Assembly (NCBI GenBank): GCA_000146045.2
Contig: BK006943.2
Coordinates: 192,001-256,000, forward strand
Reading direction: 5' to 3'
Length of the DNA stretch: 64,000 nt
Source of the DNA: TPA_inf: Saccharomyces
Taxonomy: Eukaryota
The notes beneath the pieces are model-generated. The model did not search any database. It saw nothing but the letters and a program-made list of their open reading frames with translations, and was not told the origin of the DNA. The position numbers and the translations under genes are program-made. Shown one piece after another: positions 1,467 through 54,975 of the stretch (its first letter is position 1; each line of letters opens with the position of its first letter).

Positions 1467-1859
1467 GATACTGTTATTTTTATAGCCAAAAAATGAAAAA
1501 AAACAGCATGGCATCTTGTTAGTTCTGTTGCAACTCGCAGGAAGTAACAAAATAAACACTATAATATTTCCATATATTTATATATATGTATACAAACACC
1601 TTGTTAACAAAAAAAAAATAAACGAACTAAAGAAAACCGTAATGCAGAGTACACCTTGAAGAGAGAGAAAAGAAAATCTTTGAATCCATAGCATAATAGC
1701 GATCAACGAAACTTTTTAAGAAGTAAAATGAACTGAAAGGAGAAAAATATAACGGAATCCCAATGTATAATAATAAATAGAGAGCGGAAGAAAAAGAATA
1801 ATAAGGGGAATTGAGGGTATCAAAATACAAGACATTCTTTTACCGAAAAGAAGAATGAC

Positions 1860-2873
1860 TTAATAGAAAACAAATTCAGCAGATCCAGATAAAACAGAAA
1901 CTGTGCAACCATCGGAACCATCTCCGGTGAAAGAGCCATCTTCATACGCACAGCTGCCCTGAACGTTAGCGCCATCGGATGCAACTATTTTAACGTTAAA
2001 GTTGGCAGCTTGGTTACTGTTGGGGTTTGGAATCAACGACAAGTATGTTTCTCCATTAGTGGAACCAGCACCTAACACTAGTGGAGCCCAGTTGCCGACA
2101 TCCGAACCAGAAGTACCCCAAATGCACCCATCTTCTGCAGATACACCGGCGTTGTTAATATAGTACTGAGCAGAAGTCTTTTTACCCTGCCATTGATAAT
2201 AAGTGTCTTCATCAACGACTGAAATTGGTTGTGAATCTCCACCATCAACCACTGTGGGAATCACCATGTTTTCTGATCCTGGGTAATCCGTCCTACATAG
2301 AGCAATGGAGTCAGACTTTTTGTTAATGGCCTTAGCAGATGTTTCATCCGTAGAACATAAATCGCTGGTATCAGTGTTGGTACGGTACAAGTAACCATTT
2401 TTACAGTAAAGACCACCAACAGATTTACCATCGCTTGGTTGGTCAGAAGGCCATTGAGTCTTTGACATTCCAGGTTCACATGCATAAGAACAGTAGTAGC
2501 CATCCTTACATTCGGACGAAGTGTTGGCATCCATGTCCATGACAGAGGCCCATCCACCAAATCCTAGCCAGTCCAAGGAAACTATACCGTTTACAGAAGG
2601 GAAGTCCGAACATTTGACAGTACCATCTTGGAATCCGCCATCACGCTTCTGTTCAGAGGTATCCTTCTCAGATGAGGACAATGTAGTGGTAGTAGCAGCA
2701 GATTCTACAGTACTAGTAGCGGCATTGGAATCTATGTATTGAGTGACAGTGACAACCGCTGGTTTTTCATCTTTGTGATGATCTTCATGGTGACTGTCCG
2801 CTGGAGCAGGTGCAGGGGCAGAAAATGCGACAGAAGAAAGGGAAGACAATATTAAAGCTGCGGAAATTTTCAT
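1860..2873 (-). CDS. NCA3: NCA3 (YJL116C), secreted SUN-family protein (SIM1/UTH1/NCA3/SUN4)
   Basis: 337 aa. It has an N-terminal signal peptide ([24 protein letters not shown]), a Ser/Thr-rich region and a Cys-rich C-terminal SUN domain (..[38 protein letters not shown]..). Confidence 0.85.
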
Positions 2874-4070
2874 TATGTGTTAGAGAGAGACGAGTTAAGT
2901 ATGTGCGACTATACTAGTATTATAATATTAAAGGAAAGTAAGGTACCGTCTATGAGGAGACTGTTAGTTGGATATCAGTAATGAGACGAAAAAGCTCGAA
3001 ATGAATGGATATATTCTTTTTGCTACTGGCAACTGTTGAATATTTAATGTTAAAACAAACTAACTGAGGTATATTCGTATCTGTATGTACACATATACTA
3101 TATACAGGAAAAGATAAGCAAGAGAGAGGATATCAACTACGAGAGCGATCGATTATATATCAAAAGCTGTCCGCTTTGCCACCCATAATCGGCGCTTAGT
3201 TTCGGAGTTCAATCATAATTCTACCACCTTACACTCAACTTACTCTTTAACTCCTATAGTATAATATCGCCACTGACCCCATATTAAAAAAATTTTTTTG
3301 CTCGATCTTCTATCCTCTTTAGGTTAATTGTCGCTGTTATTGTCTAGATTTTTTCTCGGAGATGGCGCATCTATTTGCCGTCAAAAGATCCTCTCATACC
3401 ATATTAAGTAAATTGCCTCCATTTCTTTTTCCTCGGGCAGAGAAACTCGCAGGCAACTTGCTCTCGAAGTGGTCACGTGCGGGTCTAGGCCTGCATAATC
3501 GGCCCTCACAGAGGGATCCCGTTACCCATCTATGCTGAAGATTTATCATACTATTCCTCCGCTCGTTTCTTTTTTCAGTGAGGTGTGTCGTGAAAGAAAA
3601 CCCACAATTAAACTTTCAACAACCGGGCGACTAGGAAGAGAGTAGTGGGCGCGGATGACGAAGGCTAAGGTCACTTCTTCGTTTCCTTTATTGGGGTTTC
3701 CGTGTAGCCTTCCCCTGAATAGTGTGGGACGTTTTATGAGAAGCCGTAAGAAATAGGCAAATTGAGTTATGACAAGTAGACATGATGCCGCAGCCTTGCC
3801 TGACTTTACGTCTCCTTCATGAATAAGTTTTTCTATCGAGTTCTTTTCCTTTTTTCGCCTTAATTAGCTCAATTAAGCCTGTCCTCACTACTTTTCTTTT
3901 TCTTATCGGCTTTGTGCCACACCTAACCTTCGAATGCTGTTTTATTCCGTTCTTACATGGGATGGTAATGCCTTGGCGAGAATTTCGATTTTCAGGATAT
4001 TGTCTTGGTGGCGTCTTTTGCTGTTACTATGTGTTTAAGAGAGAGCTGTTCTACAAAGAACTTTTCATTT

Positions 4071-5312: not shown

Positions 5313-5385
5313 TGGACGAGTCCGGAATCGAACCGGAGACCTCTCCCATGCTAAGGGAGCGCGCTACCGACTACGCCACACGCCC
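5313..5385 (-). tRNA. tA(AGC)J: tRNA-Ala(AGC)
   Basis: The reverse complement reads GGGCGTGTGGCGTAGTCGGTAGCGCGCTCCCTTAGCATGGGAGAGGTCTCCGGTTCGATTCCGGACTCGTCCA. It has a cloverleaf, anticodon AGC, the G3:U70 alanine identity pair, A/B boxes and no intron. A T-tract lies downstream on the minus strand. Confidence 0.95.
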
Positions 5386-5400
5386 TAATATTATTGATAT

Positions 5401-5493
5401 TGTTGTTTATCAAAGTGAGATACGTCAGTATGACAATACGTCATCCTAAAAGTTCATAAAACACATATGAAACAACTTCATAACAGAACGAAC
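5401..5493 (+). repeat. Sigma (Ty3 LTR) 5' fragment, truncated by a later insertion
   Basis: TGTTGTTTATCAAAGTGAGATACGTCAGTATGACAATACGTCATCCTAAAAGTTCATAAAACACATATGAAACAAC... matches the start of the sigma consensus. It begins exactly 16 bp upstream of the tRNA-Ala 5' end, the canonical Ty3 integration position. Confidence 0.6.
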
Positions 5494-5494
5494 A

Positions 5495-5544
5495 TGTTGG
5501 AATAAAAATCCACTATCGTCTATCAACTAATAGTTATATTATCA
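5495..5544 (+). repeat. First ~50 nt of a diverged delta (Ty1/Ty2-type LTR). The rest continues at 12115-12382, split by the Ty4 and solo-delta insertions.
   Basis: TGTTGGAATAAAAATCCACTATCGTCTATCAACTAATAGTTATATTATCA matches the delta 5' end (TGTTGGAATAGAAATCAACTATCATCTACTAACTAGTAT..TATATTATCA). Confidence 0.55.
5540..5544. repeat. Ty4 target-site duplication, left copy (TATCA)
   Basis: TATCA lies immediately 5' of the LTR TGTTGG. The same pentamer lies immediately 3' of the 3' LTR, at 11769-11773. Confidence 0.8.
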
Positions 5545-5915
5545 TGTTGGAACGAGAGTAATTAATAGTGACATGAGTTGCTATGGTAACAATCTAATGC
5601 TTACATCGTATATTAATGTACAACTCGTATACGTTTAAGTGTGATTGCGCCTATTGCAGAAGGAATGTTAAACGAGAAGCTCAGACAATACTGAAGCTGT
5701 GTTAAAGACCTATTAGTTGAACATGTTATGGTAGGTACATATATGAGGAATATGAGTCGTCACATCAATGTATAGTAACTACCGGAATCACTATTATATT
5801 GGTCATAATTAATATGACCAATCGGCGTGTGTTTTATATACCTCTCTTATTTAGTATAAGAAGATCAGTACTCACTTCTTCATTAATACTAATTTTTAAC
5901 CTCTAATTATCAACA
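5545..5915 (+). repeat. Ty4 5' LTR (tau), 371 bp
   Basis: Exact direct repeat of 11398-11768. Begins TGTTGG and ends CAACA. Confidence 0.95.
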
Positions 5916-7157
5916 TGGCGACCCCAGTGAGGGGTGAAACAAGAAATGTTATTGACGACAACATTTCTGCGCGGATTCAATCGAAAGTCAAAACAAATGA
6001 TACTGTCAGACAGACGCCATCATCATTAAGAAAAGTTTCTATTAAAGATGAACAGGTGAGACAATATCAAAGAAACTTAAATAGGTTTAAAACCATACTA
6101 AATGGTTTAAAGGCAGAAGAGGAAAAACTTTCTGAGGCTGATGATATTCAGATGCTAGCTGAAAAATTATTAAAACTCGGAGAAACCATTGACAAGGTTG
6201 AGAATAGGATTGTGGATCTAGTTGAAAAGATACAATTATTGGAAACAAACGAGAACAATAATATATTACATGAACATATAGATGCTACAGGGACTTACTA
6301 TTTATTCGATACGTTAACTTCAACCAACAAAAGATTCTACCCTAAGGATTGTGTTTTTGATTATAGGACTAATAATGTCGAGAACATTCCTATTCTCTTA
6401 AACAATTTTAAAAAATTCATCAAGAAATATCAATTTGATGATGTCTTTGAAAATGATATCATAGAAATCGATCCTCGTGAAAATGAAATCTTGTGCAAGA
6501 TAATCAAAGAAGGACTCGGTGAAAGTTTAGATATCATGAACACAAATACAACTGACATTTTTAGGATAATCGATGGTTTAAAAAAACAAATATAGAAGTT
6601 TGCATGGTAGAGATGTCAGAATTAGAGCCTGGGAAAAGGTTTTGGTTGATACAACATGTAGAAATTCCGCATTGTTAATGAATAAACTTCAAAAGTTGGT
6701 ACTAATGGAAAAATGGATTTTTTCTAAATGCTGCCAAGATTGTCCTAATCTAAAGGATTACCTACAAGAAGCTATCATGGGAACCTTACATGAATCCTTA
6801 AGAAATTCTGTGAAACAACGTTTGTACAACATTCCACATGACGTAGGAATTGATCACGAAGAATTTCTAATCAATACTGTTATTGAAACAGTAATTGATT
6901 TGAGCCCAATTGCAGACGATCAAATAGAAAATAGCTGCATGTATTGCAAATCTGTTTTCCATTGCTCAATTAACTGCAAAAAGAAACCAAATAGGGAACT
7001 TAGGCCTGACTCGACCAATTTCTCAAAAACCTATTATCTACAAGGTGCACAGAGACAACAACCACTTAAGTCCAGTGCAAAACGAACAAAAGTCTTGGAA
7101 CAAGACACAAAAAAGGTCGAACAAAGTGTACAACAGCAAAAAACTGGTAATTATTGA
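5915..7157 (+). CDS. Ty4 TYA (Gag). In this copy it is split into two frames (5915-6595 in frame 2 and 6582/6600-7157 in frame 0) by a frame break at an A7 run.
   Basis: A 226-aa ORF starts at the LTR-proximal ATG. A 185-aa continuation ends NRELRPDSTNF... and contains the Cys/His motif (CMYCKSVFHCSINC). The two parts match a single gag of about 414 codons if one A is removed from 6580-6586. Confidence 0.7.
5916..5933 (+). promoter_or_regulatory. Ty4 minus-strand primer-binding site, complementary to the 3' end of tRNA-Asn(GUU)
   Basis: TGGCGACCCCAGTGAGGG is the reverse complement of the tRNA-Asn 3' end (...CCCTCACTGGGGTCGCCA). It lies directly after the LTR terminal CA and overlaps the TYA start codon. 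Confidence 0.75.
7008..7014 (+). promoter_or_regulatory. Programmed +1 ribosomal frameshift heptamer CTT-AGG-C (TYA to TYB)
   Basis: CTTAGGC lies in the TYA frame (Leu-Arg), and the TYB frame (frame 1) is open across it. It is the same heptamer as the Ty1/Ty2 +1 frameshift site. Confidence 0.75.
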
Positions 7158-10100
7158 TACCGGTTCCGGAGTAAACATTACCAATGACAAAACCTTACTG
7201 CATAATTACGAAGACAGTAATCGCAGTACACGATTTTTTGGTATTGGGAAAAACAGTTCAGTGTCTGTTAAAGGGTATGGCTATATAAAAATCAAGAATG
7301 GTCACAACAATACTGACAATAAGTGTCTATTAACTTACTATGTACCGGAAGAAGAATCCACTATAATCAGCTGTTATGACTTAGCCAAGAAAACCAAAAT
7401 GGTTTTAAGTCGAAAATATACCAGATTGGGAAACAAAATCATAAAAATTAAAACCAAGATAGTTAATGGTGTCATTCACGTAAAAATGAACGAGTTAATT
7501 GAACGTCCTTCCGATGATTCAAAAATAAATGCAATAAAACCTACTTCTTCTCCTGGATTTAAACTAAATAAAAGGTCTATTACCTTGGAAGATGCTCATA
7601 AAAGAATGGGCCATACAGGAATTCAACAAATTGAAAATTCCATAAAACATAATCATTATGAAGAATCCCTTGACTTAATCAAAGAACCAAATGAATTTTG
7701 GTGTCAAACCTGTAAAATCTCTAAAGCCACGAAAAGAAATCATTATACCGGGTCTATGAATAATCATAGTACTGATCATGAACCAGGCTCATCATGGTGC
7801 ATGGATATATTTGGCCCTGTATCAAGTTCAAACGCGGACACTAAAAGGTACATGCTTATTATGGTGGATAACAACACGAGATATTGCATGACCTCCACAC
7901 ACTTCAATAAGAATGCTGAAACTATTTTAGCTCAAGTTAGAAAGAATATTCAGTACGTGGAAACACAATTTGACAGGAAAGTCAGAGAAATTAATTCAGA
8001 CAGAGGTACTGAATTCACAAATGATCAGATAGAAGAATATTTTATTTCAAAAGGAATACATCACATACTTACTTCTACACAAGATCATGCTGCTAACGGA
8101 AGAGCAGAAAGATACATAAGAACAATAATAACTGATGCAACAACACTCCTAAGACAAAGTAACTTAAGAGTAAAATTTTGGGAATACGCAGTAACTTCTG
8201 CTACCAATATAAGAAATTACCTGGAACACAAAAGTACAGGTAAACTACCATTGAAGGCAATCTCACGTCAACCTGTGACAGTGAGATTAATGTCATTCTT
8301 ACCATTTGGCGAAAAAGGAATAATTTGGAATCATAATCACAAAAAATTGAAACCATCTGGACTTCCTTCTATAATTCTATGCAAAGATCCAAATAGTTAT
8401 GGATACAAATTCTTTATACCATCCAAAAATAAAATTGTCACATCTGATAATTATACAATTCCCAACTATACAATGGACGGTAGAGTAAGAAATACTCAGA
8501 ATATTAACAAGAGTCATCAATTCAGTTCAGATAATGATGATGAAGAAGATCAAATCGAAACGGTCACAAACTTATGTGAAGCTTTGGAAAACTACGAAGA
8601 TGATAATAAACCAATTACTCGCCTGGAAGATTTGTTCACAGAGGAAGAGTTATCTCAAATAGACTCAAACGCAAAATACCCATCTCCTAGTAATAACCTA
8701 GAAGGGGACTTGGATTACGTATTTTCTGATGTTGAGGAATCTGGAGATTATGACGTTGAATCTGAACTTTCAACGACAAATAATTCAATCTCAACTGATA
8801 AAAACAAAATTTTGTCAAACAAGGATTTTAATTCAGAACTTGCATCGACTGAAATATCCATCAGTGGAATCGATAAGAAAGGATTAATAAATACAAGTCA
8901 TATTGATGAAGATAAGTATGATGAAAAAGTCCACAGAATTCCATCGATTATACAAGAGAAACTGGTAGGAAGTAAAAATACTATTAAAATCAATGACGAA
9001 AACAAAATCTCCGACAGAATTCGTAGTAAAAACATTGGGAGTATTTTAAACACTGGACTCAGTAGATGTGTAGATATCACCGATGAATCTATTACTAACA
9101 AAGATGAGTCAATGCACAACGCAAAACCCGAACTAATTCAGGAGCAGTTAAAAAAAACAAATCATGAAACTTCGTTTCCTAAAGAAGGGAGCATTGGAAC
9201 AAATGTAAAATTCCGAAATACAAACAATGAGATTTCTTTAAAAACAGGCGATACGAGTTTACCAATAAAAACTTTAGAAAGCATTAACAATCACCATAGT
9301 AATGATTATTCCACAAACAAAGTTGAAAAGTTTGAGAAGGAAAATCATCATCCGCCCCCGATTGAGGACATTGTGGATATGAGTGATCAAACTGATATGG
9401 AATCAAACTGTCAGGATGGTAATAACTTAAAAGAATTAAAAGTCACCGATAAAAATGTACCAACTGACAATGGAACAAATGTGTCACCAAGGTTGGAACA
9501 AAATATTGAAGCATCTGGATCACCAGTACAAACAGTTAATAAAAGTGCCTTCTTAAACAAAGAATTCAGTTCTTTGAACATGAAAAGAAAACGGAAAAGA
9601 CACGATAAAAACAATAGTCTAACAAGCTATGAATTAGAAAGAGATAAGAAGCGTTCAAAAAAGAATCGAGTGAAATTAATTCCAGATAATATGGAAACAG
9701 TTTCAGCACCAAAAATTCGAGCCATATATTATAATGAAGCTATTTCAAAAAATCCTGACCTCAAAGAAAAACATGAATACAAACAGGCATATCATAAAGA
9801 ATTACAGAATTTAAAAGATATGAAGGTATTTGATGTCGATGTGAAGTACAGTAGATCAGAAATCCCTGATAATTTAATAGTACCCACCAACACGATATTC
9901 ACAAAGAAAAGAAATGGGATTTATAAGGCTAGGATAGTCTGCAGAGGTGATACTCAGTCACCAGACACTTACAGTGTAATAACTACAGAATCTTTAAATC
10001 ACAATCATATTAAGATATTCTTAATGATTGCAAACAACAGAAATATGTTTATGAAGACCCTGGATATCAATCATGCATTCCTATATGCTAAATTGGAAGA

Positions 10101-11325
10101 AGAAATATACATCCCACATCCGCATGATAGGAGATGTGTAGTCAAGCTAAATAAGGCGTTATATGGTCTAAAACAGAGTCCTAAAGAATGGAATGATCAT
10201 CTAAGACAATACTTGAATGGAATTGGACTGAAAGATAACTCTTATACTCCGGGATTATACCAAACCGAGGATAAAAATCTAATGATTGCAGTCTATGTTG
10301 ATGACTGCGTAATTGCGGCAAGCAATGAACAGAGATTGGATGAATTCATAAACAAATTGAAAAGTAATTTTGAACTGAAAATTACAGGAACATTAATAGA
10401 CGATGTACTCGATACAGATATATTAGGAATGGATCTAGTATACAACAAAAGACTTGGTACTATCGATTTAACATTAAAATCATTCATAAATAGAATGGAT
10501 AAAAAATACAACGAGGAATTGAAAAAGATTAGAAAAAGTTCAATTCCGCATATGTCAACTTATAAAATAGATCCTAAGAAAGACGTACTGCAAATGTCAG
10601 AAGAAGAGTTTAGACAAGGTGTTCTAAAGCTACAACAATTACTAGGTGAACTAAACTATGTCAGACACAAATGCAGATACGACATTGAATTTGCTGTTAA
10701 GAAAGTGGCTAGACTAGTAAATTACCCACATGAAAGAGTCTTTTATATGATTTACAAAATAATCCAGTACTTGGTTCGGTATAAAGATATTGGAATACAC
10801 TATGACCGAGACTGTAATAAAGACAAAAAGGTTATTGCTATAACTGATGCATCAGTTGGATCAGAATATGATGCTCAATCAAGGATTGGAGTTATATTAT
10901 GGTACGGTATGAATATTTTTAATGTTTATTCTAACAAGAGCACAAACAGATGTGTATCATCAACAGAAGCAGAGCTTCATGCCATTTATGAAGGCTATGC
11001 AGACTCAGAAACGTTGAAGGTAACATTAAAGGAGCTAGGAGAAGGAGACAATAATGACATTGTCATGATCACTGACTCAAAGCCAGCCATTCAAGGATTA
11101 AATCGCAGCTATCAACAACCAAAAGAGAAATTCACTTGGATAAAAACTGAAATAATAAAAGAAAAAATTAAAGAGAAGAGTATAAAACTGTTAAAAATTA
11201 CCGGCAAAGGTAATATTGCTGATTTACTAACAAAACCAGTATCAGCATCTGATTTTAAAAGATTTATACAAGTATTAAAAAATAAAATAACATCACAGGA
11301 TATTTTGGCCTCAACAGACTATTGA
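7012..11325 (+). CDS. Ty4 TYB (Pol: protease, integrase, reverse transcriptase, RNase H), expressed as a TYA-TYB fusion by +1 frameshifting
   Basis: Frame-1 ORF. The track calls 7045-11325 (1426 aa). Motifs: IIDTGSG (aspartic protease), H..H..C..C integrase zinc finger plus DDE core, AVYVDDCVIAA (RT YXDD), and ITDAS..E..D RNase H. Confidence 0.9.
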   Translation, partial: RPISQKPIIYKVHRDNNHLSPVQNEQKSWNKTQKRSNKVYNSKKLVIIDTGSGVNITNDKTLLHNYEDSNRSTRFFGIGKNSSVSVKGYGYIKIKNGHNNTDNKCLLTYYVPEEESTIISCYDLAKKTKMVLSRKYTRLGNKIIKIKTKIVNGVIHVKMNELIERPSDDSKINAIKPTSSPGFKLNKRSITLEDAHKRMGHTGIQQIENSIKHNHYEESLDLIKEPNEFWCQTCKISKATKRNHYTGSMNNHSTDHEPGSSWCMDIFGPVSSSNADTKRYMLIMVDNNTRYCMTSTHFNKNAETILAQVRKNIQYVETQFDRKVREINSDRGTEFTNDQIEEYFISKGIHHILTSTQDHAANGRAERYIRTIITDATTLLRQSNLRVKFWEYAVTSATNIRNYLEHKSTGKLPLKAISRQPVTVRLMSFLPFGEKGIIWNHNHKKLKPSGLPSIILCKDPNSYGYKFFIPSKNKIVTSDNYTIPNYTMDGRVRNTQNINKSHQFSSDNDDEEDQIETVTNLCEALENYEDDNKPITRLEDLFTEEELSQIDSNAKYPSPSNNLEGDLDYVFSDVEESGDYDVESELSTTNNSISTDKNKILSNKDFNSELASTEISISGIDKKGLINTSHIDEDKYDEKVHRIPSIIQEKLVGSKNTIKINDENKISDRIRSKNIGSILNTGLSRCVDITDESITNKDESMHNAKPELIQEQLKKTNHETSFPKEGSIGTNVKFRNTNNEISLKTGDTSLPIKTLESINNHHSNDYSTNKVEKFEKENHHPPPIEDIVDMSDQTDMESNCQDGNNLKELKVTDKNVPTDNGTNVSPRLEQNIEASGSPVQTVNKSAFLNKEFSSLNMKRKRKRHDKNNSLTSYELERDKKRSKKNRVKLIPDNMETVSAPKIRAIYYNEAISKNPDLKEKHEYKQAYHKELQNLKDMKVFDVDVKYSRSEIPDNLIVPTNTIFTKKRNGIYKARIVCRGDTQSPDTYSVITTESLNHNHIKIFLMIANNRNMFMKTLDINHAFLYAKLEEEIYIPHPHDRRCVVKLNKALYGLKQSPKEWNDHLRQYLNGIGLKDNSYTPGLYQTEDKNLMIAVYVDDCVIAASNEQRLDEFINKLKSNFELKITGTLIDDVLDTDILGMDLVYNKRLGTIDLTLKSFINRMDKKYNEELKKIRKSSIPHMSTYKIDPKKDVLQMSEEEFRQGVLKLQQLLGELNYVRHKCRYDIEFAVKKVARLVNYPHERVFYMIYKIIQYLVRYKDIGIHYDRDCNKDKKVIAITDASVGSEYDAQSRIGVILWYGMNIFNVYSNKSTNRCVSSTEAELHAIYEGYADSETLKVTLKELGEGDNNDIVMITDSKPAIQGLNRSYQQPKEKFTWIKTEIIKEKIKEKSIKLLKITGKGNIADLLTKPVSASDFKRFIQVLKNKITSQDILASTDY

Positions 11326-11397
11326 TAATTAATTAATGAAGTTCTAAACACACAATGAATATCTGTTGAAGTACAATAATATATCTTTAAGGGAGCA

Positions 11398-11768
11398 TGT
11401 TGGAACGAGAGTAATTAATAGTGACATGAGTTGCTATGGTAACAATCTAATGCTTACATCGTATATTAATGTACAACTCGTATACGTTTAAGTGTGATTG
11501 CGCCTATTGCAGAAGGAATGTTAAACGAGAAGCTCAGACAATACTGAAGCTGTGTTAAAGACCTATTAGTTGAACATGTTATGGTAGGTACATATATGAG
11601 GAATATGAGTCGTCACATCAATGTATAGTAACTACCGGAATCACTATTATATTGGTCATAATTAATATGACCAATCGGCGTGTGTTTTATATACCTCTCT
11701 TATTTAGTATAAGAAGATCAGTACTCACTTCTTCATTAATACTAATTTTTAACCTCTAATTATCAACA
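11398..11768 (+). repeat. Ty4 3' LTR (tau), 371 bp
   Basis: Exact copy of 5545-5915. It is preceded by a purine-rich tract (AAGGGAGCA) and followed by the TATCA target-site duplication at 11769-11773. Confidence 0.95.
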
Positions 11769-11782
11769 TATCAATATATTAT

Positions 11783-12114
11783 TGAAGATTGGGTGAATTT
11801 TGAGATAATTGTTGGGATTCCATTTTTAATAAGGCAATAATATTAGGTATGTAGATATACTAGAAGTTCTCCTCCAGGATTTAGGAATCCATAAAAGGAA
11901 ATCTGCAATTCTACACAATTCTATAAATATTATTATCATCATTTTATATGTTAATATTCATTGATCCTATTACATTATCAATCCTTGCGTTTCAGCTTCC
12001 ACTAATTTAGATGACTATTTCTCATCATTTGCGTCATCTTCTAACACCGTATATGATAATATACTAGTAACGTAAATACTAGTTAGTAGATGATAGTTGA
12101 TTTTTATTCCAACA
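11783..12114 (-). repeat. Complete solo delta (Ty1 LTR, ~332 bp) in inverted orientation, with an ATTAT target-site duplication
   Basis: The reverse complement matches the delta consensus from end to end (TGTTGGAATAAAAATCAACTATCATCTACTAACTAGTATTTACGTTACTAGTATATTATCATATACGGTGTTAGAAGATGACGCAAATGATGAGAAATAGTCATCTAAATTAGTGGAAGCTGAAACGCAAGGATTGATAATGTAATAGGATCAATGAATATTAACATATAAAATGATGATAATAATATTTATAGAATTGTGTAGAATTGCAGATTTCCTTTTATGGATTCCTAAATCCTGGAGGAGAACTTCTAGTATATCTACATACCTAATATTATTGCCTTATTAAAAATGGAATCCCAACAATTATCTCAAAATTCACCCAATCTTCA). It is flanked by ATTAT at 11778-11782 and 12115-12119. Confidence 0.85.
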
Positions 12115-12382
12115 ATTATCATATACGGTGTTAAGATGATGACATAAGTTATGAGAAGCTGTCATCGAAGTTAGAGGAAGCTGAAGTGCAAGGATTGATA
12201 ATGTAATAGGATAATGAAACATATAAAACGGAATGAGGAATAATCGTAATATTAGTATGTAGAAATATAGATTCCATTTTGAGGATTCCTATATCCTCGA
12301 GGAGAACTTCTAGTATATTCTGTATACCTAATATTATACCCTCTATCAACAACAGGATTCCAACAATTATTTCAAAATCCAC
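12115..12382 (+). repeat. Continuation (about nt 46 to the end) of the diverged delta whose first 50 nt are at 5495-5544
   Basis: ATTATCATATACGGTGTTAAGATGATGACATAAGTTATGAGAAGCTGTCATCGAAGTTAGAGGAAGCTGAAGTGCAAGGATTGATAATGTAATAGGATAATGAAACATATAAAACGGAATGAGGAATAATCG...GAGGAGAACTTCTAGTATATTCTGTATACCTAATATTATACCC...CCAACAATTATTTCAAAATCCACCCATATCTCA aligns to the delta consensus at about 80% identity. Confidence 0.6.
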
Positions 12383-12399
12383 CCATATCTCAGATTTCA

Positions 12400-12520
12400 C
12401 ATCAGTATTGATTAAAATATTAATTGCTACCAGTTCTAATAAATCTAATGTTTACATCATATAGTAATATATCTTTTGAGAAATGTGACTGGCGTTATAC
12501 AGAAACCGAATTACACGTTT
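12400..12520 (+). repeat. Diverged tau-like (Ty4 LTR) remnant
   Basis: ..ATTGCTACCAGTTCTAATAAATCTAATGTTTACATCATATAGTAATATATCTTTTGAGAAATGTGACTGGCGTTATACAGAAACCG.. resembles the tau segment GTTGCTATGGTAACAATCTAATGCTTACATCGTATATTAATGTACAACTCGTATACGTTTAAGTGTGATTGCGCCTATTGCAGAAGG. I aligned this by eye only. Confidence 0.3.
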
Positions 12521-12734
12521 TAAATACTAATTATTAAAATTTATCCTGATAAGTTGATCTTTATTTCCGTACAGCACAACCGATAGAGGAGATGTTTAAA
12601 GTGTTTAAGCTCACTTTATAGGGTGAAACACATTTTGACGACCGTAAAAGGTCATTTGATTTGGTATTGAGGTCGAGAAAATATTTTCAAATAGTGAAGG
12701 ATACATTAAACACGCTCACAAAACAACATAAAAA

Positions 12735-12806
12735 TCCGTGATAGTTTAATGGTCAGAATGGGCGCTTGTCGCGTGCCAGATCGGGGTTCAATTCCCCGTC
12801 GCGGAG
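12735..12806 (+). tRNA. tD(GUC)J: tRNA-Asp(GUC)
   Basis: TCCGTGATAGTTTAATGGTCAGAATGGGCGCTTGTCGCGTGCCAGATCGGGGTTCAATTCCCCGTCGCGGAG matches the classic yeast tRNA-Asp sequence, with anticodon GTC. It is followed by a T9 Pol III terminator at 12809-12817. Confidence 0.95.
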
Positions 12807-22900: not shown

Positions 22901-25309
22901 TACAAAAATATCGGAATCTAACGGCAATGATTGTAGTACACCGACTGTATCGTACGATGATTCTACGTTACTCGAAGAATCCACGATATTTTGGACGATT
23001 TTTAGTTTTTGAGCATTATTTAATGAAGCGAATATGCTGATAAGCCTCTCGGCAGCTATGTTAGCTAACTGCTCATAATCTGAGTTAAGAGCACTGAGAA
23101 CAAAATCGATCATGAATGACTGCTTTTCTTTTGGTGATACCAAATTAACTAAAGAGCGCTCAAAATGCTCAAAGTTTGTTTTATTAGCAATACAACTCTT
23201 TTCCCAACTAGATCTGTTTTCTAAGTAGTGGGAAATAAATTCCTCAAATAGGGAGGAATAAGAAGATGCATAAGTCGGACTCTTGTTCAGGTTATCCAAC
23301 AACACTGTCTTGGCATACGGAGAAGGTATTAGTAGGGCTTGATTAGCCCAAAACATCAAAAAGACTTTTTCATTTCTCTTTGGCGTTAAAATTCTGGATA
23401 TGTCATAATTCTCAGTAACGTACTCATTCAAAAATCCTGATAACCATGCCTCACTATCTTTGGGATTTAACATAGGAATGGTAACGTTCTCTCCGTAAAG
23501 TTTATCAGACAAAAAGTAGTGCTTAGTGGATGGTCTTTTAGCAATCAAGGAAAGAATCTTCTTCACGCCAGTCCTAACTTTTATAGAAGCATCTCGCAAA
23601 GCGCAAATCAAGCATGGAACTAAAGTAAAAATATTAACTTCCTTTTCAATACTATTAATATATTTTGCAATATTGTTTAAAGATATTAGCTTTAGCGCGG
23701 TTGGAGCGGCTGGAGATATAGTTACTCTTAACAAAAACGTTATTCTTGATTCTAAAGTAGTGAAAAATGAAGTCAAGAAGGAACTTGCTTTATAGCCTTT
23801 ACCAATAGCTTCAGTGAATAAAGATAAAACCTTTTTGTATCTTTCTCCAGTTTCTGTTAGCATGGACACATTCGTTGTGTTTATCAATTCTGAATGCTTA
23901 TCCAAGAATGTTTGAAATGAAGCGGTATCCTTTTTAGTAGTTTCCACGGGGTCGCTTAACTGCTTTACAATGTCGGTGTTAACATCGGCATTAGTGAACA
24001 AAGATGTAGTAAGCCTGATTTCGAAGAGTTCGCCTGTCAGTCCCAATGATTTCAAACATTTTAACACCAAATCTTCATTTATGGAGATAAAATATTCGAA
24101 TAGTTCTACTAATTGTGACTTGTCCTCTAAAATTTCGGAAAGGTAAATCAAATCAGTGATTATCAACCTAACTTCGTATCTTTCTAGTCTTATTTTTTTT
24201 AGTAGGCTAAGAATAATGTTCAATTTGGACCGATCATACCTTGCTATGGATCTTGTATAGGAAGTAATGAATTTATCACAAACTGGTTTGTCTTCCTTAT
24301 CTAAGAAGGTTAGTATAGACACAGTGTCGAACTTGCTATCAAATAACTTGAAAATTTTGGAAGGTAGCTGATCTACGTTACCTTGTCCTTTTAATGTTTG
24401 GAACAGCTTACAAATCGTGAGGAGTGCTGAATGTTTTGCCTCTTTAGCATCTAAGTTTGAAAGAATGGTTTCCATGGCAGCTAAGATAATTGTTTTCTTT
24501 AAAGGCAAAGCTGTAGCAAATACAACTAATATGGTATGTGCAGCTATTTGACAATCCTTTGATTTAGAGGCTAAAAGTTTAGCAGATATTTCAAGTAAGA
24601 TTGGAACAAGCTGATTCAGTTTTTCATCGTTGTTTGAATTGAAAGCAACAACGTTAATAAAGCAGCATGTTGTAAATAAAAGCTGGTTAGTATACGTTGC
24701 ATTATGCTTAATACATTGATCCAAATAACTGGTATAAAGTTTCAGAAAATCCATGTCATTAAAGAGCTTTATCATGGTTAGCGCCGTTGGGGGCTTTTCA
24801 CTTCTAACAAAATTCGACAAACAATTAAACAAAGGGGGCAACTTAATAATGCTGAGAATTCTCTTAAAGACAGGTGTTTGGTAGTAGTTGAGAGTGGACA
24901 AAAGCAGCATCTCTGTGTTTTTAACATGTATTTGAAAACGACGAACCAACCATTCTGTTGCATGTAGTGTAGGTGCTAAATACCATTTAGAAGAAGCCAA
25001 TAGCAAGTAAGCATTGATAGCATTATCCAAATCTTTAATTTCTTCTTTTGTTTGGACATTTCTATCAAGAGAAATGGAAGACTCTGAAAAGAGTGTTCTT
25101 GAGAAAATGGCAAATTTTGGCTCAATTTGGCTCAATTCTTCAAGAGCCTTACTAGCGTTTTCAAAAATGAAATCGTAATCTTGTGTTGCAGCCGTCTTTG
25201 AGTTATAAATCAAAGAAGCAGAATGAAGTTTTTGTCTTCTCTTTCTATCCAACGCAACAGTAGCATTGTTGGAAGCAACTTGAGCTAATTGGTCACTCAA
25301 CGAAGACAT
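20000..25309 (-). CDS. UTP10: UTP10 (YJL109C), SSU processome / t-UTP HEAT-repeat protein (HEATR1 ortholog)
   Basis: About 1769 aa of alpha-helical HEAT-repeat protein with no obvious enzymatic motifs. Its position between GZF3 and PRM10 and its size match. The track start at 25315 is TTG. The first ATG is at 25309 (MSSLSDQLAQ..). Confidence 0.8.
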   Translation of the reverse strand: MSSLSDQLAQVASNNATVALDRKRRQKLHSASLIYNSKTAATQDYDFIFENASKALEELSQIEPKFAIFSRTLFSESSISLDRNVQTKEEIKDLDNAINAYLLLASSKWYLAPTLHATEWLVRRFQIHVKNTEMLLLSTLNYYQTPVFKRILSIIKLPPLFNCLSNFVRSEKPPTALTMIKLFNDMDFLKLYTSYLDQCIKHNATYTNQLLFTTCCFINVVAFNSNNDEKLNQLVPILLEISAKLLASKSKDCQIAAHTILVVFATALPLKKTIILAAMETILSNLDAKEAKHSALLTICKLFQTLKGQGNVDQLPSKIFKLFDSKFDTVSILTFLDKEDKPVCDKFITSYTRSIARYDRSKLNIILSLLKKIRLERYEVRLIITDLIYLSEILEDKSQLVELFEYFISINEDLVLKCLKSLGLTGELFEIRLTTSLFTNADVNTDIVKQLSDPVETTKKDTASFQTFLDKHSELINTTNVSMLTETGERYKKVLSLFTEAIGKGYKASSFLTSFFTTLESRITFLLRVTISPAAPTALKLISLNNIAKYINSIEKEVNIFTLVPCLICALRDASIKVRTGVKKILSLIAKRPSTKHYFLSDKLYGENVTIPMLNPKDSEAWLSGFLNEYVTENYDISRILTPKRNEKVFLMFWANQALLIPSPYAKTVLLDNLNKSPTYASSYSSLFEEFISHYLENRSSWEKSCIANKTNFEHFERSLVNLVSPKEKQSFMIDFVLSALNSDYEQLANIAAERLISIFASLNNAQKLKIVQNIVDSSSNVESSYDTVGVLQSLPLDSDIFVSILNQNSISNEMDQTDFSKRRRRRSSTSKNAFLKEEVSQLAELHLRKLTIILEALDKVRNVGSEKLLFTLLSLLSDLETLDQDGGLPVLYAQETLISCTLNTITYLKEHGCTELTNVRADILVSAIRNSASPQVQNKLLLVIGSLATLSSEVILHSVMPIFTFMGAHSIRQDDEFTTKVVERTILTVVPALIKNSKGNEKEEMEFLLLSFTTALQHVPRHRRVKLFSTLIKTLDPVKALGSFLFLIAQQYSSALVNFKIGEARILIEFIKALLVDLHVNEELSGLNDLLDIIKLLTSSKSSSEKKKSLESRVLFSNGVLNFSESEFLTFMNNTFEFINKITEETDQDYYDVRRNLRLKVYSVLLDETSDKKLIRNIREEFGTLLEGVLFFINSVELTFSCITSQENEEASDSETSLSDHTTEIKEILFKVLGNVLQILPVDEFVNAVLPLLSTSTNEDIRYHLTLVIGSKFELEGSEAIPIVNNVMKVLLDRMPLESKSVVISQVILNTMTALVSKYGKKLEGSILTQALTLATEKVSSDMTEVKISSLALITNCVQVLGVKSIAFYPKIVPPSIKLFDASLADSSNPLKEQLQVAILLLFAGLIKRIPSFLMSNILDVLHVIYFSREVDSSIRLSVISLIIENIDLKEVLKVLFRIWSTEIATSNDTVAVSLFLSTLESTVENIDKKSATSQSPIFFKLLLSLFEFRSISSFDNNTISRIEASVHEISNSYVLKMNDKVFRPLFVILVRWAFDGEGVTNAGITETERLLAFFKFFNKLQENLRGIITSYFTYLLEPVDMLLKRFISKDMENVNLRRLVINSLTSSLKFDRDEYWKSTSRFELISVSLVNQLSNIENSIGKYLVKAIGALASNNSGVDEHNQILNKLIVEHMKASCSSNEKLWAIRAMKLIYSKIGESWLVLLPQLVPVIAELLEDDDEEIEREVRTGLVKVVENVLGEPFDRYLD

Positions 25310-25704
25310 TTTCAAAGTTATTCGTACTTTGGTGGCCAGTTAGATAAGTCTGATTCTGAAAGGTAATAAAGAAAGTATTTGTTACACCTTCGAAAATATC
25401 TAGCTCATCGCTAACTGAAAATTTTTTTCTTTGCTTAACGCAGAAAGAAAAAAGAAAAAAAAAAAAGTCATGTGACTTGAATATTATTAATCTATGTATG
25501 TTATGATTATTGGCTATGAAACCATAAAATTGAAAAAAAGGATTCATAAGCTGATATGTTATTTGTACTTAATGCTATATTTATAATTTACTTTTGAAAT
25601 TTTTCTTAGTGGGTCAAAGTCTTCTTTGATACTGAAGAATGACCCAATGGCAACACTTGGTCCATTGGTTAACAAGTTTCTAACGAAGTGGACCTTGTGA
25701 GAGC

Positions 25705-26856
25705 TTATAAACTGAAAAGACCAGTTTTCTTTTTACCAAAGGGGTAGACAAAGAGTGAAGAAGCAAATAGTCCCACAGAAATACCGACACAAACTTGAAT
25801 CATTGTCATACCAAATGACATTGAGGACGATGGATCGGAGGTGCTTGTCGTAATGGTTTCATTAGCATTAACAATTGTATTTGCACTTTGCAACCCAGAC
25901 AACAACGAATTTTGTGAAGCAATACCAGATGGCACTTGAACGAAGATTGCGGGAAGCATAGCTGATACCGCTAAACCTTTCCAAATTCTGGAATATAGAT
26001 TACCTAAAACACCTATGACAAATGCAGCTAAGGCGGCAGTAAACTCTGTCGAATTCGCAAAATGCTTACCGGCCCAATATGTTACGACATAACCGGTGCA
26101 AGAAATGAAGACCATAACTGGCAGTTGTGAGATGTGTGCTTGATTTAATAACGAGATACTAATGGTAAACGCTGGAACGAAGAGGAACCTGAACCACGGA
26201 GAAATTAATTGAGGACATGAAATTTCGTTAGTGGCATTGTGATACATCCATCCAAACAAAGCTGAGCCCAATGTTATGCCAAAACCCAAAAACAAAGAAT
26301 AAATAATGGCGTAGAACATACGGACCGCGCCAGCAACTAGGCTTCGACTTTGCAGTTCTAGTGCACCACACAGAATAATATAACCTGGCAGGATTAATGC
26401 CAATGAGCCTTGTGTAACTGCACCAAAGCAGATGTGAGAACGAGGGATAGAGCCAAAAGCTCTACCGCAGAAGCTAACGACAATAGATGCAGAAATTTCG
26501 AAGACGTTTGAATACATGTATGACTTTTGTGAAAGAATAAATTGTAATGACCCCACACAAAGCCCCATAAAAAATGAGATTGCCAGGTTTACCCAATCGC
26601 CACCAAAGGCATACGGAGTGACCATAGCGGAACAAAATGCATATAAAAGAACACACATCCAAGGTGGATATAGATTCGTGTCAGCCAAAATTTGATCGAG
26701 TAAAGCATTACCTTCATCGGCACCTAAGGTATCATGGACAACTCTTTTGTAAACGGCATGAACTTGATGCAGCTTCCAAAGGTTTAGACCTTGAGTACAC
26801 CTAACCAATTGAACTTCGGAAGTTCTTGTTGTTGCATCACCAAATGAAACAATCAT
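25705..26856 (-). CDS. PRM10: PRM10 (YJL108C), pheromone-regulated multi-pass membrane protein (ThrE/DUF1212-DUF3815 family, C-terminal transmembrane half)
   Basis: 383 aa from the ATG at 26856 (MIVSFGDATTRTSE..), with many hydrophobic helices. The track ORF begins at an upstream TTG (26874). Confidence 0.8.
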   Translation of the reverse strand: MIVSFGDATTRTSEVQLVRCTQGLNLWKLHQVHAVYKRVVHDTLGADEGNALLDQILADTNLYPPWMCVLLYAFCSAMVTPYAFGGDWVNLAISFFMGLCVGSLQFILSQKSYMYSNVFEISASIVVSFCGRAFGSIPRSHICFGAVTQGSLALILPGYIILCGALELQSRSLVAGAVRMFYAIIYSLFLGFGITLGSALFGWMYHNATNEISCPQLISPWFRFLFVPAFTISISLLNQAHISQLPVMVFISCTGYVVTYWAGKHFANSTEFTAALAAFVIGVLGNLYSRIWKGLAVSAMLPAIFVQVPSGIASQNSLLSGLQSANTIVNANETITTSTSDPSSSMSFGMTMIQVCVGISVGLFASSLFVYPFGKKKTGLFSL

Positions 26857-28016
26857 ACAACCTGGAAGATACAAAACTGACCATCTATTTCAAGGACTCT
26901 AGAAGTCATAACCATATATTCTTCAAGCCTATGCGTCGGAGCACCATACATCATAAGAGCTCTACACATGCGTAGGATGAACCGGTGTCTTTGTAAAATG
27001 TCTGCAATGTGAACCGTAATTTTCGCTTCAGTTTTTAGTCTTTTCTTCAGTCTAGGCATTCTGCCTTTTTTAGCCTTGCCTTTTAAATTTTGTAATCTGC
27101 TACGCTTGGCAACTGGTACGTCTTTGTTTCCAGCAGTAGAAGAAATACCTTCATCATCTGTTGTTACAGCTTGTGAATCTGAAAAGATTGAGCTTGAATT
27201 TTGATCTTCATTTTGGTAAAGTTTCAATAATGACCCTAGTACTCCACTTTTCACTTGAGATGGAGGGGGTACGTATGTGGAGGTTTCAATAAACCCTTCG
27301 TTATCGTCGGATGAATTGTTTTCTGCATAATCATCAAAATGATCCACTGCAGGAGCCAGAAATGAATTTTTTGAACTTGAGCCTAACGTTTCGCCATCCG
27401 ACGTACAATTTACGTCACCTTCTAATTTGAGAGCCTCCAGTTTTTCTTTATCGTCGCCCTCATGAACGTCTACGATTTTAGACGCATCAGCTAGATCGGA
27501 TAAGGGAATTTCTTCATTACGGTTATTTTTTTCTATATCATTCTTCCCATTTTCATTTTCTGAAGGTATTGGTGCCAAGCCAGGGACCAAACCCCCTTGA
27601 TTTCCAGTCAGGTTATTTATTATCTTCTTGATGAACGTCTCATCGTCTCCATCCTTACCATTGTTCCTTAAATGTGTGAAAGAAACTTTAGGCTTCCTCT
27701 TGTGGCGAGCAGGCCTATCTTCTTCATCTTGTCCATCTGTGCCCTTAGAATTATCGCTGGTTTCTGTAGATCTTGAAGACAAATCATTTTCTAGAGCATC
27801 CGTATCAGCAGTGAATCTTACATTTTTGTTATCATTATTAGAAATACCTAGATCACTGATGCTTTTACCACTTAAATTGCCTTTTTTGCTCTCGGCTGAA
27901 TTGGAAGTGCGATGGTCACTACTATCTTCAAGATTCACTCCCGCTTGACTTTGCTCGGAGCTTCCCACCCGAAAATCTGACACAGGAGTGGTTGGTTTTT
28001 CATTTCTACCGTCCAT
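26853..28016 (-). CDS. YJL107C, hydrophilic Ser/Asp-rich protein whose C-terminus begins the ThrE/DUF1212 domain. It is apparently the N-terminal half of a gene split from PRM10.
   Basis: 387 aa. It ends ..YGAPTHRLEEYMVMTSRVLEIDGQFCIFQVV*. Its TGA stop (26853-26855) overlaps the PRM10 ATG by 2 nt, and the two ORFs are in different frames. Confidence 0.75.
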   Translation of the reverse strand: MDGRNEKPTTPVSDFRVGSSEQSQAGVNLEDSSDHRTSNSAESKKGNLSGKSISDLGISNNDNKNVRFTADTDALENDLSSRSTETSDNSKGTDGQDEEDRPARHKRKPKVSFTHLRNNGKDGDDETFIKKIINNLTGNQGGLVPGLAPIPSENENGKNDIEKNNRNEEIPLSDLADASKIVDVHEGDDKEKLEALKLEGDVNCTSDGETLGSSSKNSFLAPAVDHFDDYAENNSSDDNEGFIETSTYVPPPSQVKSGVLGSLLKLYQNEDQNSSSIFSDSQAVTTDDEGISSTAGNKDVPVAKRSRLQNLKGKAKKGRMPRLKKRLKTEAKITVHIADILQRHRFILRMCRALMMYGAPTHRLEEYMVMTSRVLEIDGQFCIFQVV

Positions 28017-29389: not shown

Positions 29390-31327
29390 ATGGTTGAAAA
29401 ACGTAGTAGACAGAGTTCCAGTAGTGGCTCAGAGTTCAGTGTTCCACCTGATGTCGATAACCCGCCACTTTCTATCCCTTTGAAGACTTTATCAGACAGA
29501 TATCAGCTGATCGAAAAACTAGGTGCAGGATCATTTGGTTGTGTAACTTTAGCCAAAGCGCAATTTCCTTTATCGAACATATTGGGTAAACAACATGATA
29601 TAAGGGGTACTTTAATGGATCAGCCTAAAAATGGTCACCAAAACTATATAACAAAGACACAAGGTGTAGTGGCTATAAAGACAATGATGACAAAACTGCA
29701 TACACTCCAGGATTATACGAGGGTCAGAGAAATTAAGTTCATACTGGCAATCCCAGCGAATGACCATCTGATACAAATTTTTGAGGTCTTTATTGACTCT
29801 GAAAATTACCAATTACATATCGTAATGGAATGTATGGAGCAAAACCTATATCAAATGATGAAACATAGAAGGCGCCGAGTTTTTTCGATTCCTTCTTTGA
29901 AATCTATTCTATCGCAGATACTGGCTGGGTTAAAACACATCCACGAACATAATTTCTTCCACAGAGATTTAAAACCTGAAAATATTCTTATCACACCAAG
30001 TACCCAGTATTTTGAAAAGGAGTACATGAACCAGATTGGATATCAAGATAACTATGTCATTAAACTTGCAGATTTTGGTTTGGCACGCCATGTTGAAAAT
30101 AAAAACCCGTATACGGCCTACGTTTCCACAAGATGGTATAGATCGCCTGAAATATTATTAAGAAGTGGTTACTATTCCAAACCTTTGGATATTTGGGCAT
30201 TCGGGTGCGTGGCGGTGGAAGTTACTGTATTCAGAGCTCTCTTCCCCGGTGCTAACGAAATCGATCAGATATGGAAAATTTTAGAAGTTCTTGGTACACC
30301 TATCAAACGTTCTGATTTTGTTAATACAAACCACATCACAGCTCCACCACCTGGTGGATTTTGGGATGATGCCAGTAATTTGGTCCATAAATTAAACTTG
30401 AAATTGCCTTATGTAGAAGGTTCATCGTTGGATCATCTACTTTCTAGCTCCCAACTATCCGATTTATCTGAGGTTGTCAAAAAGTGTTTAAGATGGGATC
30501 CTAATGAAAGGGCAACAGCCCAAGAGCTTTGTGAAATGCCATTTTTTGAAAACACCGTGGCATCCCAAGTAGACGCAAGAGGCAATGTGACTAATACAGA
30601 ACAAGCATTGATTTTTGCAGGTATAAATCCAGTAGCGACCAACACAAAGCCCATATATTTTAACTCTTCAACAAAATTGCCCGCAGAAACAGAGTCTAAT
30701 GATATTGATATCAGCAACAACGATCACGATTCTCATGCTATGTGCTCACCAACATTAAATCAAGAAAAACTAACTTTGGTAGAATTTTTAAACGAATTCG
30801 TTGAAGAAGATAATGATGATCACTCAATACCTGATGTTGGAACAGATTCTACCATTTCAGATTCTATTGATGAGACTGAATTATCAAAAGAAATTCGTAA
30901 TAATTTGGCCCTTTGTCAACTACCAGATGAAGAAGTCTTAGATCATTCATTATCGAATATTAGGCAGTTGACAAATGATATTGAAATTATAAATAAAGAT
31001 GAAGCAGACAACATGGAACAGCTATTTTTTGACCTGGAAATTCCTGAAAAGGATGAGTTTCAGAGAAAACAACCATTTAATGAACATGCAGATATTGATG
31101 AAGACATCGTTCTACCATATGTGAACAACTCAAATTACACACATACAGATAGGTCACATCATAGAGGTGATAATGTTTTGGGTGATGCCTCTTTAGGCGA
31201 TTCGTTTAATTCAATGCCAGATTTTACTCCAAGAAATTTCTTGATACCTACATTAAAAAAATCACGGGAAAAGTTCGAGCCTCATCTATCCAATTCAAAC
31301 CAACATTTTGGAAATGTAACCTTCTAA
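29390..31327 (+). CDS. IME2: IME2 (YJL106W), meiosis-specific Ser/Thr protein kinase (CDK/MAK-like)
   Basis: 645 aa. It has kinase subdomains (GAGSFGCV glycine loop, HRDLKPENIL, DFGLAR, a TAY activation-loop motif and WYRSPE) and a long C-terminal regulatory tail. Confidence 0.9.
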   Translation: MVEKRSRQSSSSGSEFSVPPDVDNPPLSIPLKTLSDRYQLIEKLGAGSFGCVTLAKAQFPLSNILGKQHDIRGTLMDQPKNGHQNYITKTQGVVAIKTMMTKLHTLQDYTRVREIKFILAIPANDHLIQIFEVFIDSENYQLHIVMECMEQNLYQMMKHRRRRVFSIPSLKSILSQILAGLKHIHEHNFFHRDLKPENILITPSTQYFEKEYMNQIGYQDNYVIKLADFGLARHVENKNPYTAYVSTRWYRSPEILLRSGYYSKPLDIWAFGCVAVEVTVFRALFPGANEIDQIWKILEVLGTPIKRSDFVNTNHITAPPPGGFWDDASNLVHKLNLKLPYVEGSSLDHLLSSSQLSDLSEVVKKCLRWDPNERATAQELCEMPFFENTVASQVDARGNVTNTEQALIFAGINPVATNTKPIYFNSSTKLPAETESNDIDISNNDHDSHAMCSPTLNQEKLTLVEFLNEFVEEDNDDHSIPDVGTDSTISDSIDETELSKEIRNNLALCQLPDEEVLDHSLSNIRQLTNDIEIINKDEADNMEQLFFDLEIPEKDEFQRKQPFNEHADIDEDIVLPYVNNSNYTHTDRSHHRGDNVLGDASLGDSFNSMPDFTPRNFLIPTLKKSREKFEPHLSNSNQHFGNVTF

Positions 31328-53258: not shown

Positions 53259-53590
53259 GAAATAATACTAATTAAATAATTCTAATAATTCTAATATTAA
53301 TAACAATAATAATAAGAATAATAATTATACAATAACACATGTATTTCCTAACTCACAATCGTTTGGACTACATATGCTGTCTAGTGCCTTATTGCGACTT
53401 TGCCCGTTTGATAACTTACTTCGATTGTTTAGTATTCAAAAAGGAAAAAGGCGTTTTCTTTTTCGTGTACTTTTTTTCGAAATTCTGTTGAATTTATTCG
53501 AACTCAGAATTGGTCCATCAAGAGCATCCAAAATACAAAATAACTCATCATCACACAAGAAGAAGCACAACTCCAAGCAATTTCTACAAT

Positions 53591-54975
<1,385 letters not shown>

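Follow-up and report, generated by a model that had tools for sequence, protein, structure and literature searches.

YJL107C and PRM10 of Saccharomyces cerevisiae S288C are very probably two pieces of one ThrE-family membrane-transporter gene split by the loss of a single T

Among the closest described relatives of the gene considered here are the ThrE exporters (PF06738/PF12821). In Corynebacterium glutamicum, ThrE exports threonine and serine, and in Escherichia coli the two ThrE-family domains occur as separate proteins, YjjP and YjjB. In Saccharomyces, intact PRM10, as found in S. cerevisiae strains such as YJM789 and in other species of the genus, combines ThrE and ThrE_2 domains in one protein, and it resembles the locus treated here both in its position and in this architecture. 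That locus lies in a stretch of 64,000 nucleotides (nt) from Saccharomyces assembly GCA_000146045.2 (contig BK006943.2, positions 192,001 to 256,000 of the forward strand; hereafter the window), where two separate open reading frames (ORFs), YJL107C and PRM10 (YJL108C), are annotated. We consider it very probable that these ORFs are pieces of one ThrE-family membrane-transporter gene, split by the loss of one T in the S288C lineage. In related fungi, YJL107C and YJL108C are reported to be merged, according to the SGD description of the former. The split is already known: it was described by Albert et al. in 2014 (PMC4207643), and databases hold a 770-amino-acid (aa) protein of YJM789 under the name PRM10 ("Pheromone-regulated membrane protein 10"). 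Our analysis adds the exact lesion, its origin in a homopolymer specific to S. cerevisiae, the small number of private changes in the broken allele, and the position of the cut inside a beta-strand.

Both ORFs are on the minus strand of the window, and their translations are letter-for-letter those of the S288C reference proteins:

25705..28016, minus strand: the whole ancestral PRM10 gene, 2313 nt and 770 aa if the missing T is present
26853..28016, minus strand: YJL107C ORF, 387 aa, from the ORF list; exact match to NP_012428.1 (S288C)
25705..26856, minus strand: PRM10/YJL108C ORF, 383 aa; exact match to NP_012427.1 (S288C)

Compared with intact PRM10, the window allele lacks one T at positions 26873-26876 and hence encodes a 387-aa and a 383-aa ORF; once this base is restored, the product has 99% identity to intact S. 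cerevisiae PRM10 over 770 aa. YJL107C is composed of 381 native residues, six out-of-frame residues (CIFQVV), and a stop, and its C-terminus in the window translation reads ...YGAPTHRLEEYMVMTSRVLEIDGQFCIFQVV* (an alternative excerpt of the C-terminal stretch of the 387-aa ORF is ...EIDGQFCIFQVV*). The native part comprises an N-terminal region that is disordered and hydrophilic, followed by ~37 residues from the beginning of ThrE; the PRM10 ORF is the 3' part of the gene and holds the remainder of ThrE together with ThrE_2, the membrane-spanning part of the protein. The annotated start of PRM10 corresponds to Met388, an internal Met of the intact protein and the first in-frame ATG.

Insertion of one T in the run of four at 26873-26876 yields a 770-aa ORF, in which Pfam searches place two domains (nucleotide coordinates converted from residue numbers):

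26257..26984, minus strand: ThrE domain (PF06738), residues 345-587 of the repaired protein
25753..26187, minus strand: ThrE_2 domain (PF12821), residues 611-755 of the repaired protein

When the two ORFs are searched separately, the end of the upstream ORF (residues 345-383) matches positions 1-40 of the ThrE profile (E 8e-8, 32.4 bits), and the start of the downstream ORF matches positions 40-240 (E 5e-56, 190.2 bits), followed by ThrE_2. The repaired protein has an unbroken ThrE match covering positions 1-240 of 241 (E 3e-70, 236.9 bits against a cut-off of 26.3), and ThrE_2 is matched over positions 2-128 of 129, with 33.9 and 35.7 bits in the separate-ORF and repaired searches, respectively, against a cut-off of 27. 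The frameshift cuts the ThrE domain at profile position 40 of 241, and because one domain is split exactly at the junction between the two ORFs, chance does not explain the arrangement. As in the ThrE exporters, both domains are matched over their full length and accompanied by about ten membrane-length helices, and domains and topology both place the repaired protein in the ThrE family. The fungal proteins differ from these exporters in a long disordered N-terminal extension of ~320 residues, and the S288C arrangement differs from the bacterial two-gene arrangement in that its break falls inside the ThrE domain whereas the bacterial split falls between the domains. A role of fungal PRM10 in solute transport or export is putative, the literature bearing on it indirectly through the PRM10 L156Q phenotype described below.

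We obtained an AlphaFold2 model of the intact allele from an alignment of 56 sequences (mean predicted local distance difference test score [pLDDT], 61.8), in which most of the ThrE region has a pLDDT of 70-90 and residues 1 to ~320 are disordered (pLDDT < 50). The model contains helices at residues 322-356 and 361-374, strands at 379-384, 387-394, and 399-406, and more helices thereafter; between residues 452 and 760 there are 12 helices by an approximate count, mostly at pLDDT 70-90, of which about 10-12 are of membrane length, and a hydropathy scan likewise confines the hydrophobic segments to residues 453-761. The break between residues 381 and 382 falls inside the first beta-strand (379-384) of a confidently modelled subdomain, so that YJL107C retains, from the cytosolic part of ThrE, only two helices and half a strand, and the PRM10 fragment begins at strand 2. 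The cut site differs from the natural ThrE/ThrE_2 boundary. Among solved structures, a phmmer search of the PDB recovered no match for intact PRM10 by sequence, and a comparison of the model with PDB entries by Foldseek returned nothing significant (best E 0.05, TM-scores 0.07-0.29); the ThrE family appears to be without an experimental structure in the PDB copy searched.

A homologue search with the repaired 770-aa protein as the query recovered 1171 proteins with E <= 1e-20. The S. cerevisiae match has 99% identity and 100% coverage and represents a cluster of 204 member sequences, with named 770-aa entries that include YJM789, EC1118, and PE-2, and the Saccharomyces orthologues as a whole are collinear with the query, with 100% coverage at 82-99% identity. 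Each is a single ORF:

S. cerevisiae: 770 aa
S. paradoxus: 772 aa
S. mikatae: 775 aa
S. kudriavzevii: 779 aa
S. eubayanus: 776 aa
S. uvarum: 763 aa

The best 120 of the 1171 proteins are all single ORFs (648-1255 aa long, apart from the six Saccharomyces entries), and nearly all of them carry both domains; yeast homologues with both domains number in the hundreds. The peptide that spans the junction in the full-length protein is …EIDGQFLYLPGCM…; the junction sequence EIDGQFLYLPGCMIVSFGD is the same in 10 aligned sequences, except for Tyr in place of Phe381 in Nakaseomyces glabratus, and Met388 is invariant in 56 homologues. Gene order agrees as well, since the intact 770-aa ORF of the S. cerevisiae allele CQI and the S. 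paradoxus orthologue are both flanked by an IME2-like kinase and UTP10, as is the locus in the window:

29390-31327, plus strand: IME2 kinase, 645 aa
20000-25315, minus strand: UTP10, within a 1771-aa ORF

With this synteny, the repaired protein is the orthologue of fungal PRM10. The converse history, in which two genes are ancestral and the single ORF found elsewhere is a secondary fusion, is the least probable of all the explanations we weighed, and we give it next to no credence: we found no support for it, all 120 of the best homologues listed are single ORFs, neither half alone holds a complete ThrE domain, and the S288C allele sits inside the group of intact alleles of S. cerevisiae, the nearest of which differs from it by only 4 substitutions. 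One S. cerevisiae entry among the homologues (P0004, 705 aa, from a "collapsed" assembly) is without two in-frame blocks of the disordered N-terminal region (alignment columns 122-140 and 240-286). It also shows several further substitutions, and either a natural indel variant or a fault of the assembly may account for it.

The lesion was placed by a three-way DNA alignment of the window, CQI, and S. paradoxus, and it lies close to the point where the two ORFs overlap:

26873..26876, minus strand: lesion, a run of four T (T4; A4 on the plus strand) left by a one-base homopolymer deletion; five T (T5) in intact alleles
26853..26873, minus strand: out-of-frame tail of YJL107C, TGT ATC TTC CAG GTT GTA (CIFQVV) followed by TGA
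26853..26856, minus strand: ATGA overlap, with ATG at 26856-26854 and TGA at 26855-26853 in different frames

The alignment contains a single indel, with CAG-TTTT-G in the window against CAG-TTTTT-G in CQI and CAG-TTTCT-G in S. paradoxus. The intact T5 run encodes TTT TTG, that is, Phe381 and Leu382; after the deletion, six wrong codons are read before TGA. Albert et al. gave the cause as "a stop mutation in BY" (PMC4207643), whereas the sequence holds a one-base deletion in the T run that brings a TGA into frame. The ATGA itself lies 17-20 nt downstream of the run and arises from the coding sequence TGT ATG ATT (Cys-Met-Ile) when the frame is displaced by one base. These codons are conserved in all six species checked, among them S. 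cerevisiae, S. paradoxus, S. mikatae, S. kudriavzevii, and S. eubayanus, and the overlap is an incidental by-product of them and not an evolved signal.

Among the species compared, the T5 run (TTT TTG; window positions 26871-26879 on the minus strand) is specific to S. cerevisiae, the same two codons being TTT CTG in S. paradoxus and S. eubayanus, TTT CTT in S. mikatae, and TTC CTG in S. kudriavzevii. From this comparison, a synonymous change appears to have created the homopolymer: a CTG-to-TTG change at the Leu codon, specific to S. cerevisiae, would have produced a slippage-prone run that later lost a base.

Our sample of S. cerevisiae was small and comprised 15 loci, 11 with T5 and 4 with T4. 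The T5 alleles, from ten strains of the CP005xxx series and CQI, all have the intact 770-aa ORF; compared with the window, the CP005xxx strains show 14-50 mismatches in 5.3 kb and CQI shows 42 in 6.0 kb. The four T4 loci come from an NCBI genome and from three assemblies built on public read sets, in all of which the 387-aa and 383-aa ORFs were called; all four encode the exact 387-aa protein and are 99.98-100% identical to the window over 2.9-4.2 kb, which identifies them as the S288C haplotype. Besides the deletion, the S288C allele has two private substitutions, and because these are its only other private changes and both are synonymous, the break is recent. Relative to S. paradoxus, the ratio of nonsynonymous to synonymous substitution rates (dN/dS) is 0.081 overall, 0.14 in the N-terminal half, and 0.012 in the C-terminal membrane half, values that indicate strong purifying selection on PRM10. 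Because homopolymer-length errors are common, we also considered whether the missing T might be a sequencing or assembly error of the reference, with the S288C gene in truth intact; this is extremely improbable given that four independent assemblies have T4, that the exact 387-aa protein is present on 68 contigs, and that translation stops in BY and not in RM (PMC4207643).

The ten CP005xxx records, which are of chromosome X (loci L007-L016, locus positions 1340-3652), carry the intact ORF with T5, yet their annotation lists just the 383-aa PRM10 from the internal Met onward and has no gene upstream of it. It appears that these strains, which lack the frameshift, were given the gene model of S288C.

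An earlier note made from the sequence of the window alone had proposed that the two ORFs are halves of one ThrE-family gene split by a 1-nt frameshift, and most of what it proposed is borne out by these results. One added T rejoins the split domain, and the 387-aa upstream ORF, the downstream PRM10 ORF, and the ATGA overlap in different frames are all present in the sequence as it described them, on the minus strand. The upstream ORF does end in the beginning of a ThrE-like domain (profile positions 1-40), the downstream ORF is the polytopic membrane half, and a single-base change gives a fused protein of exactly 770 aa where the note had expected about 770. It had also suggested a recent strain-specific pseudogenisation, which agrees with the restriction of T4 to the S288C haplotype and the two other private changes. 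As to the site, the lesion falls within the interval 26840-26880 to which the note pointed; the mutation is in the T run upstream and not at the ATGA. Alignment to other strains and sensu stricto species, one of the checks it recommended, recovered a contiguous ORF in 11 S. cerevisiae alleles and five other species, and the profile search of the fused translation gave a continuous ThrE and ThrE_2 match. The note had named orthologues in two genes, or a discontinuous domain alignment, as grounds for abandoning the idea; we looked for both and found single genes and an unbroken alignment.

The loss of translation from the downstream half rests on published ribosome profiling and not on computation performed here. 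Albert et al. (PLoS Genet, 2014) profiled BY, an S288C derivative, and RM, and note 2 of their Table S4 states that YJL107C and YJL108C are one ORF in RM that is interrupted in BY (PMC4207643). Their read counts (PMC4207643) are as follows:

BY, YJL107C: 633 mRNA reads, 761 footprint reads
BY, YJL108C: 664 mRNA reads, 21 footprint reads
RM, YJL107C: 1464 mRNA reads, 6682 footprint reads
RM, YJL108C: 1820 mRNA reads, 2145 footprint reads

From these counts, the ratio of downstream to upstream footprints is 0.028 (~3%) in BY and 0.32 in RM. In the BY/RM hybrid, the allelic difference in mRNA is not significant (log2 fold change 0.35, p 0.5), and the footprint log2 fold change is 5.05, which means that the PRM10 half carries ~33-fold fewer footprints in the BY allele than in that of RM (PMC4207643). 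Active Hog1 induces both the YJL107C and the PRM10 ORFs, 12.7x and 7.65x, respectively, and this co-induction together with the equal mRNA on both halves fits a single transcript. YNR065C and YNR066C, a different locus outside the window, are likewise one ORF in RM and split in BY (PMC4207643, Table S4), a strain-specific disruption of the same class that leaves one gene with two reference annotations; these two are also induced by active Hog1, 3.27x and 2.42x. A further study, by del Alamo et al. (2011), includes Prm10 only in a list of membrane-associated mRNAs and is silent on translation of the downstream half.

Two routes by which the downstream half might still be translated from its own ATG were set aside. 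Leaky scanning to the PRM10 AUG is ruled out by the 31 AUGs that lie between it and the YJL107C AUG. Reinitiation of the TURBS (termination upstream ribosome-binding site) type was rejected: the 150 nt upstream of the overlap contain no TGGGA (UGGGA) motif, the context of the PRM10 AUG is poor (T at the -3 position), and downstream footprints are ~3% of upstream footprints. The expression by reinitiation that the earlier note had raised as an alternative is not supported for the same reasons, with 21 footprint reads against 761 in BY and the ~33-fold drop (PMC4207643).

Also to be weighed is programmed -1 frameshifting or transcriptional slippage at the T run, which would restore the 770-aa protein in S288C. 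The geometry is suitable, in that a -1 shift at a homopolymer would lead from the upstream into the downstream frame, but transcriptional slippage to any appreciable extent needs a run longer than four T, the sequence CAG UUU UGU at the site is not a slippery heptamer of the form X XXY YYZ, a 141-nt stretch starting at the T run folds as poorly as shuffled sequences (z = +0.20), and footprints fall ~33-fold past the stop. The two-frame arrangement is present in no relative, so there is nothing conserved for such a mechanism to have maintained, which also counts against it; we regard this possibility as very improbable.

A somewhat less improbable alternative is that S288C continues to produce the downstream half in small but useful amounts, whether through termination-reinitiation at the ATGA or through an internal transcript, giving a two-part or N-terminally truncated transporter and not a null. 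An overlap of ATG and TGA with this geometry occurs in some viral termination-reinitiation systems, no ATG precedes that of PRM10 in its frame, and the ThrE and ThrE_2 parts are separate proteins in bacteria, as in YjjP and YjjB. The alternative also draws on the 21 BY footprint reads on YJL108C and on a gain-of-function phenotype: according to PMC11561230 and PMC12941471, which cite Kirby et al. 2016 as the source, engineered laboratory strains reportedly take up mevalonate when they have PRM10(L156Q), a residue number that refers to the 383-aa ORF. On the other side, BY footprints on this half are ~33-fold below those of RM at equal mRNA, with ratios of 0.028 and 0.32; eukaryotic reinitiation after a 387-codon ORF is very inefficient; the upstream sequence has no UGGGA motif, a T at -3, and 31 preceding AUGs; the cut lies at ThrE position 40 of 241 within a beta-strand and not at the ThrE/ThrE_2 boundary; and the ATGA is conserved coding sequence where the gene is intact. 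We therefore judge low-level functional expression to be unlikely.

The explanation we favour remains a gene broken in the S288C lineage. A synonymous CTG-to-TTG change would have given rise to the T5 run, and a deletion by replication slippage would then have removed one T from TTT TTG (Phe381-Leu382) and shifted the frame. Translation in the shifted frame ends six codons on at TGA, yielding the 387-aa product, and in the published profiling most ribosomes stop there while the mRNA of both halves is equal. The annotated PRM10 is the leftover frame, read from the ATG of the invariant internal Met. We infer that S288C has recently lost the function of a gene that is under strong purifying selection elsewhere, its allele being a null or, at best, a strong hypomorph. 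With a lesion set against intact conspecific and outgroup alleles and with the loss of downstream translation, the window allele fits a polymorphic pseudogene.

Three points weigh against this explanation. First, the confinement of T4 to the S288C lineage is provisional, because it is drawn from only 15 S. cerevisiae loci. Second, the 21 BY footprint reads on YJL108C may reflect trace translation. Third, if the strains in which L156Q confers mevalonate uptake carry T4, the downstream half must make a working protein; if they carry T5, the residue is Leu543 of the intact protein. The leucine, histidine, tryptophan, and uracil supplements in PMC11561230 lead us to guess that the strain was CEN.PK2-1C. 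The possibility of T4 in these strains leads us to keep a small probability on low-level functional expression. By the same token, there is a slim chance that the 383-aa fragment inserts in S288C as a working, N-terminally truncated transporter and that the L156Q phenotype arises from the broken allele; if true, this would be a natural case of a eukaryotic gene that is partly functional after a cut inside a domain.

The importance of a broken PRM10 in S288C is practical rather than conceptual. Most yeast functional genomics has been performed on S288C derivatives, and data on yjl107cΔ and prm10Δ, as well as the textbook account in which Prm10 has 383 aa and five transmembrane segments, concern fragments; the conserved fungal protein has ~770 aa and ~ten helices. 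Those who work with the PRM10 family or with L156Q-dependent mevalonate uptake will need to check the allele of their strain. The locus also illustrates a mode of gene loss in which a synonymous change leads to a homopolymer and the homopolymer to a slippage deletion.

Several other features of the window were recorded. Between PRM10 and UTP10, an 84-aa ORF at 25293-25547 on the minus strand overlaps the start of the TTG-extended UTP10 ORF; it was gene-called automatically on two assemblies of public read sets, has no Pfam match on record, and is likely spurious. Farther away, a 1426-aa ORF of retrotransposon type at 7045-11325 on the plus strand has Pfam matches to RVT_2, an integrase core, a Pol beta-barrel, and an SH3-like domain and is preceded by a 226-aa ORF at 5915-6595 with no Pfam match; the two are located between tRNA-Ala(AGC) at 5313-5385 and tRNA-Asp(GTC) at 12735-12806, and this pair of ORFs within 5313-12806 is probably a Ty element inserted beside tRNA genes. 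Finally, two 244-aa ORFs at 53510-54244 and 54241-54975 on the plus strand overlap by 4 nt, both with TTG starts in a list made with the bacterial code; the overlap within 53510-54975 probably arises from the treatment of TTG as a start codon and does not mark a second split gene.

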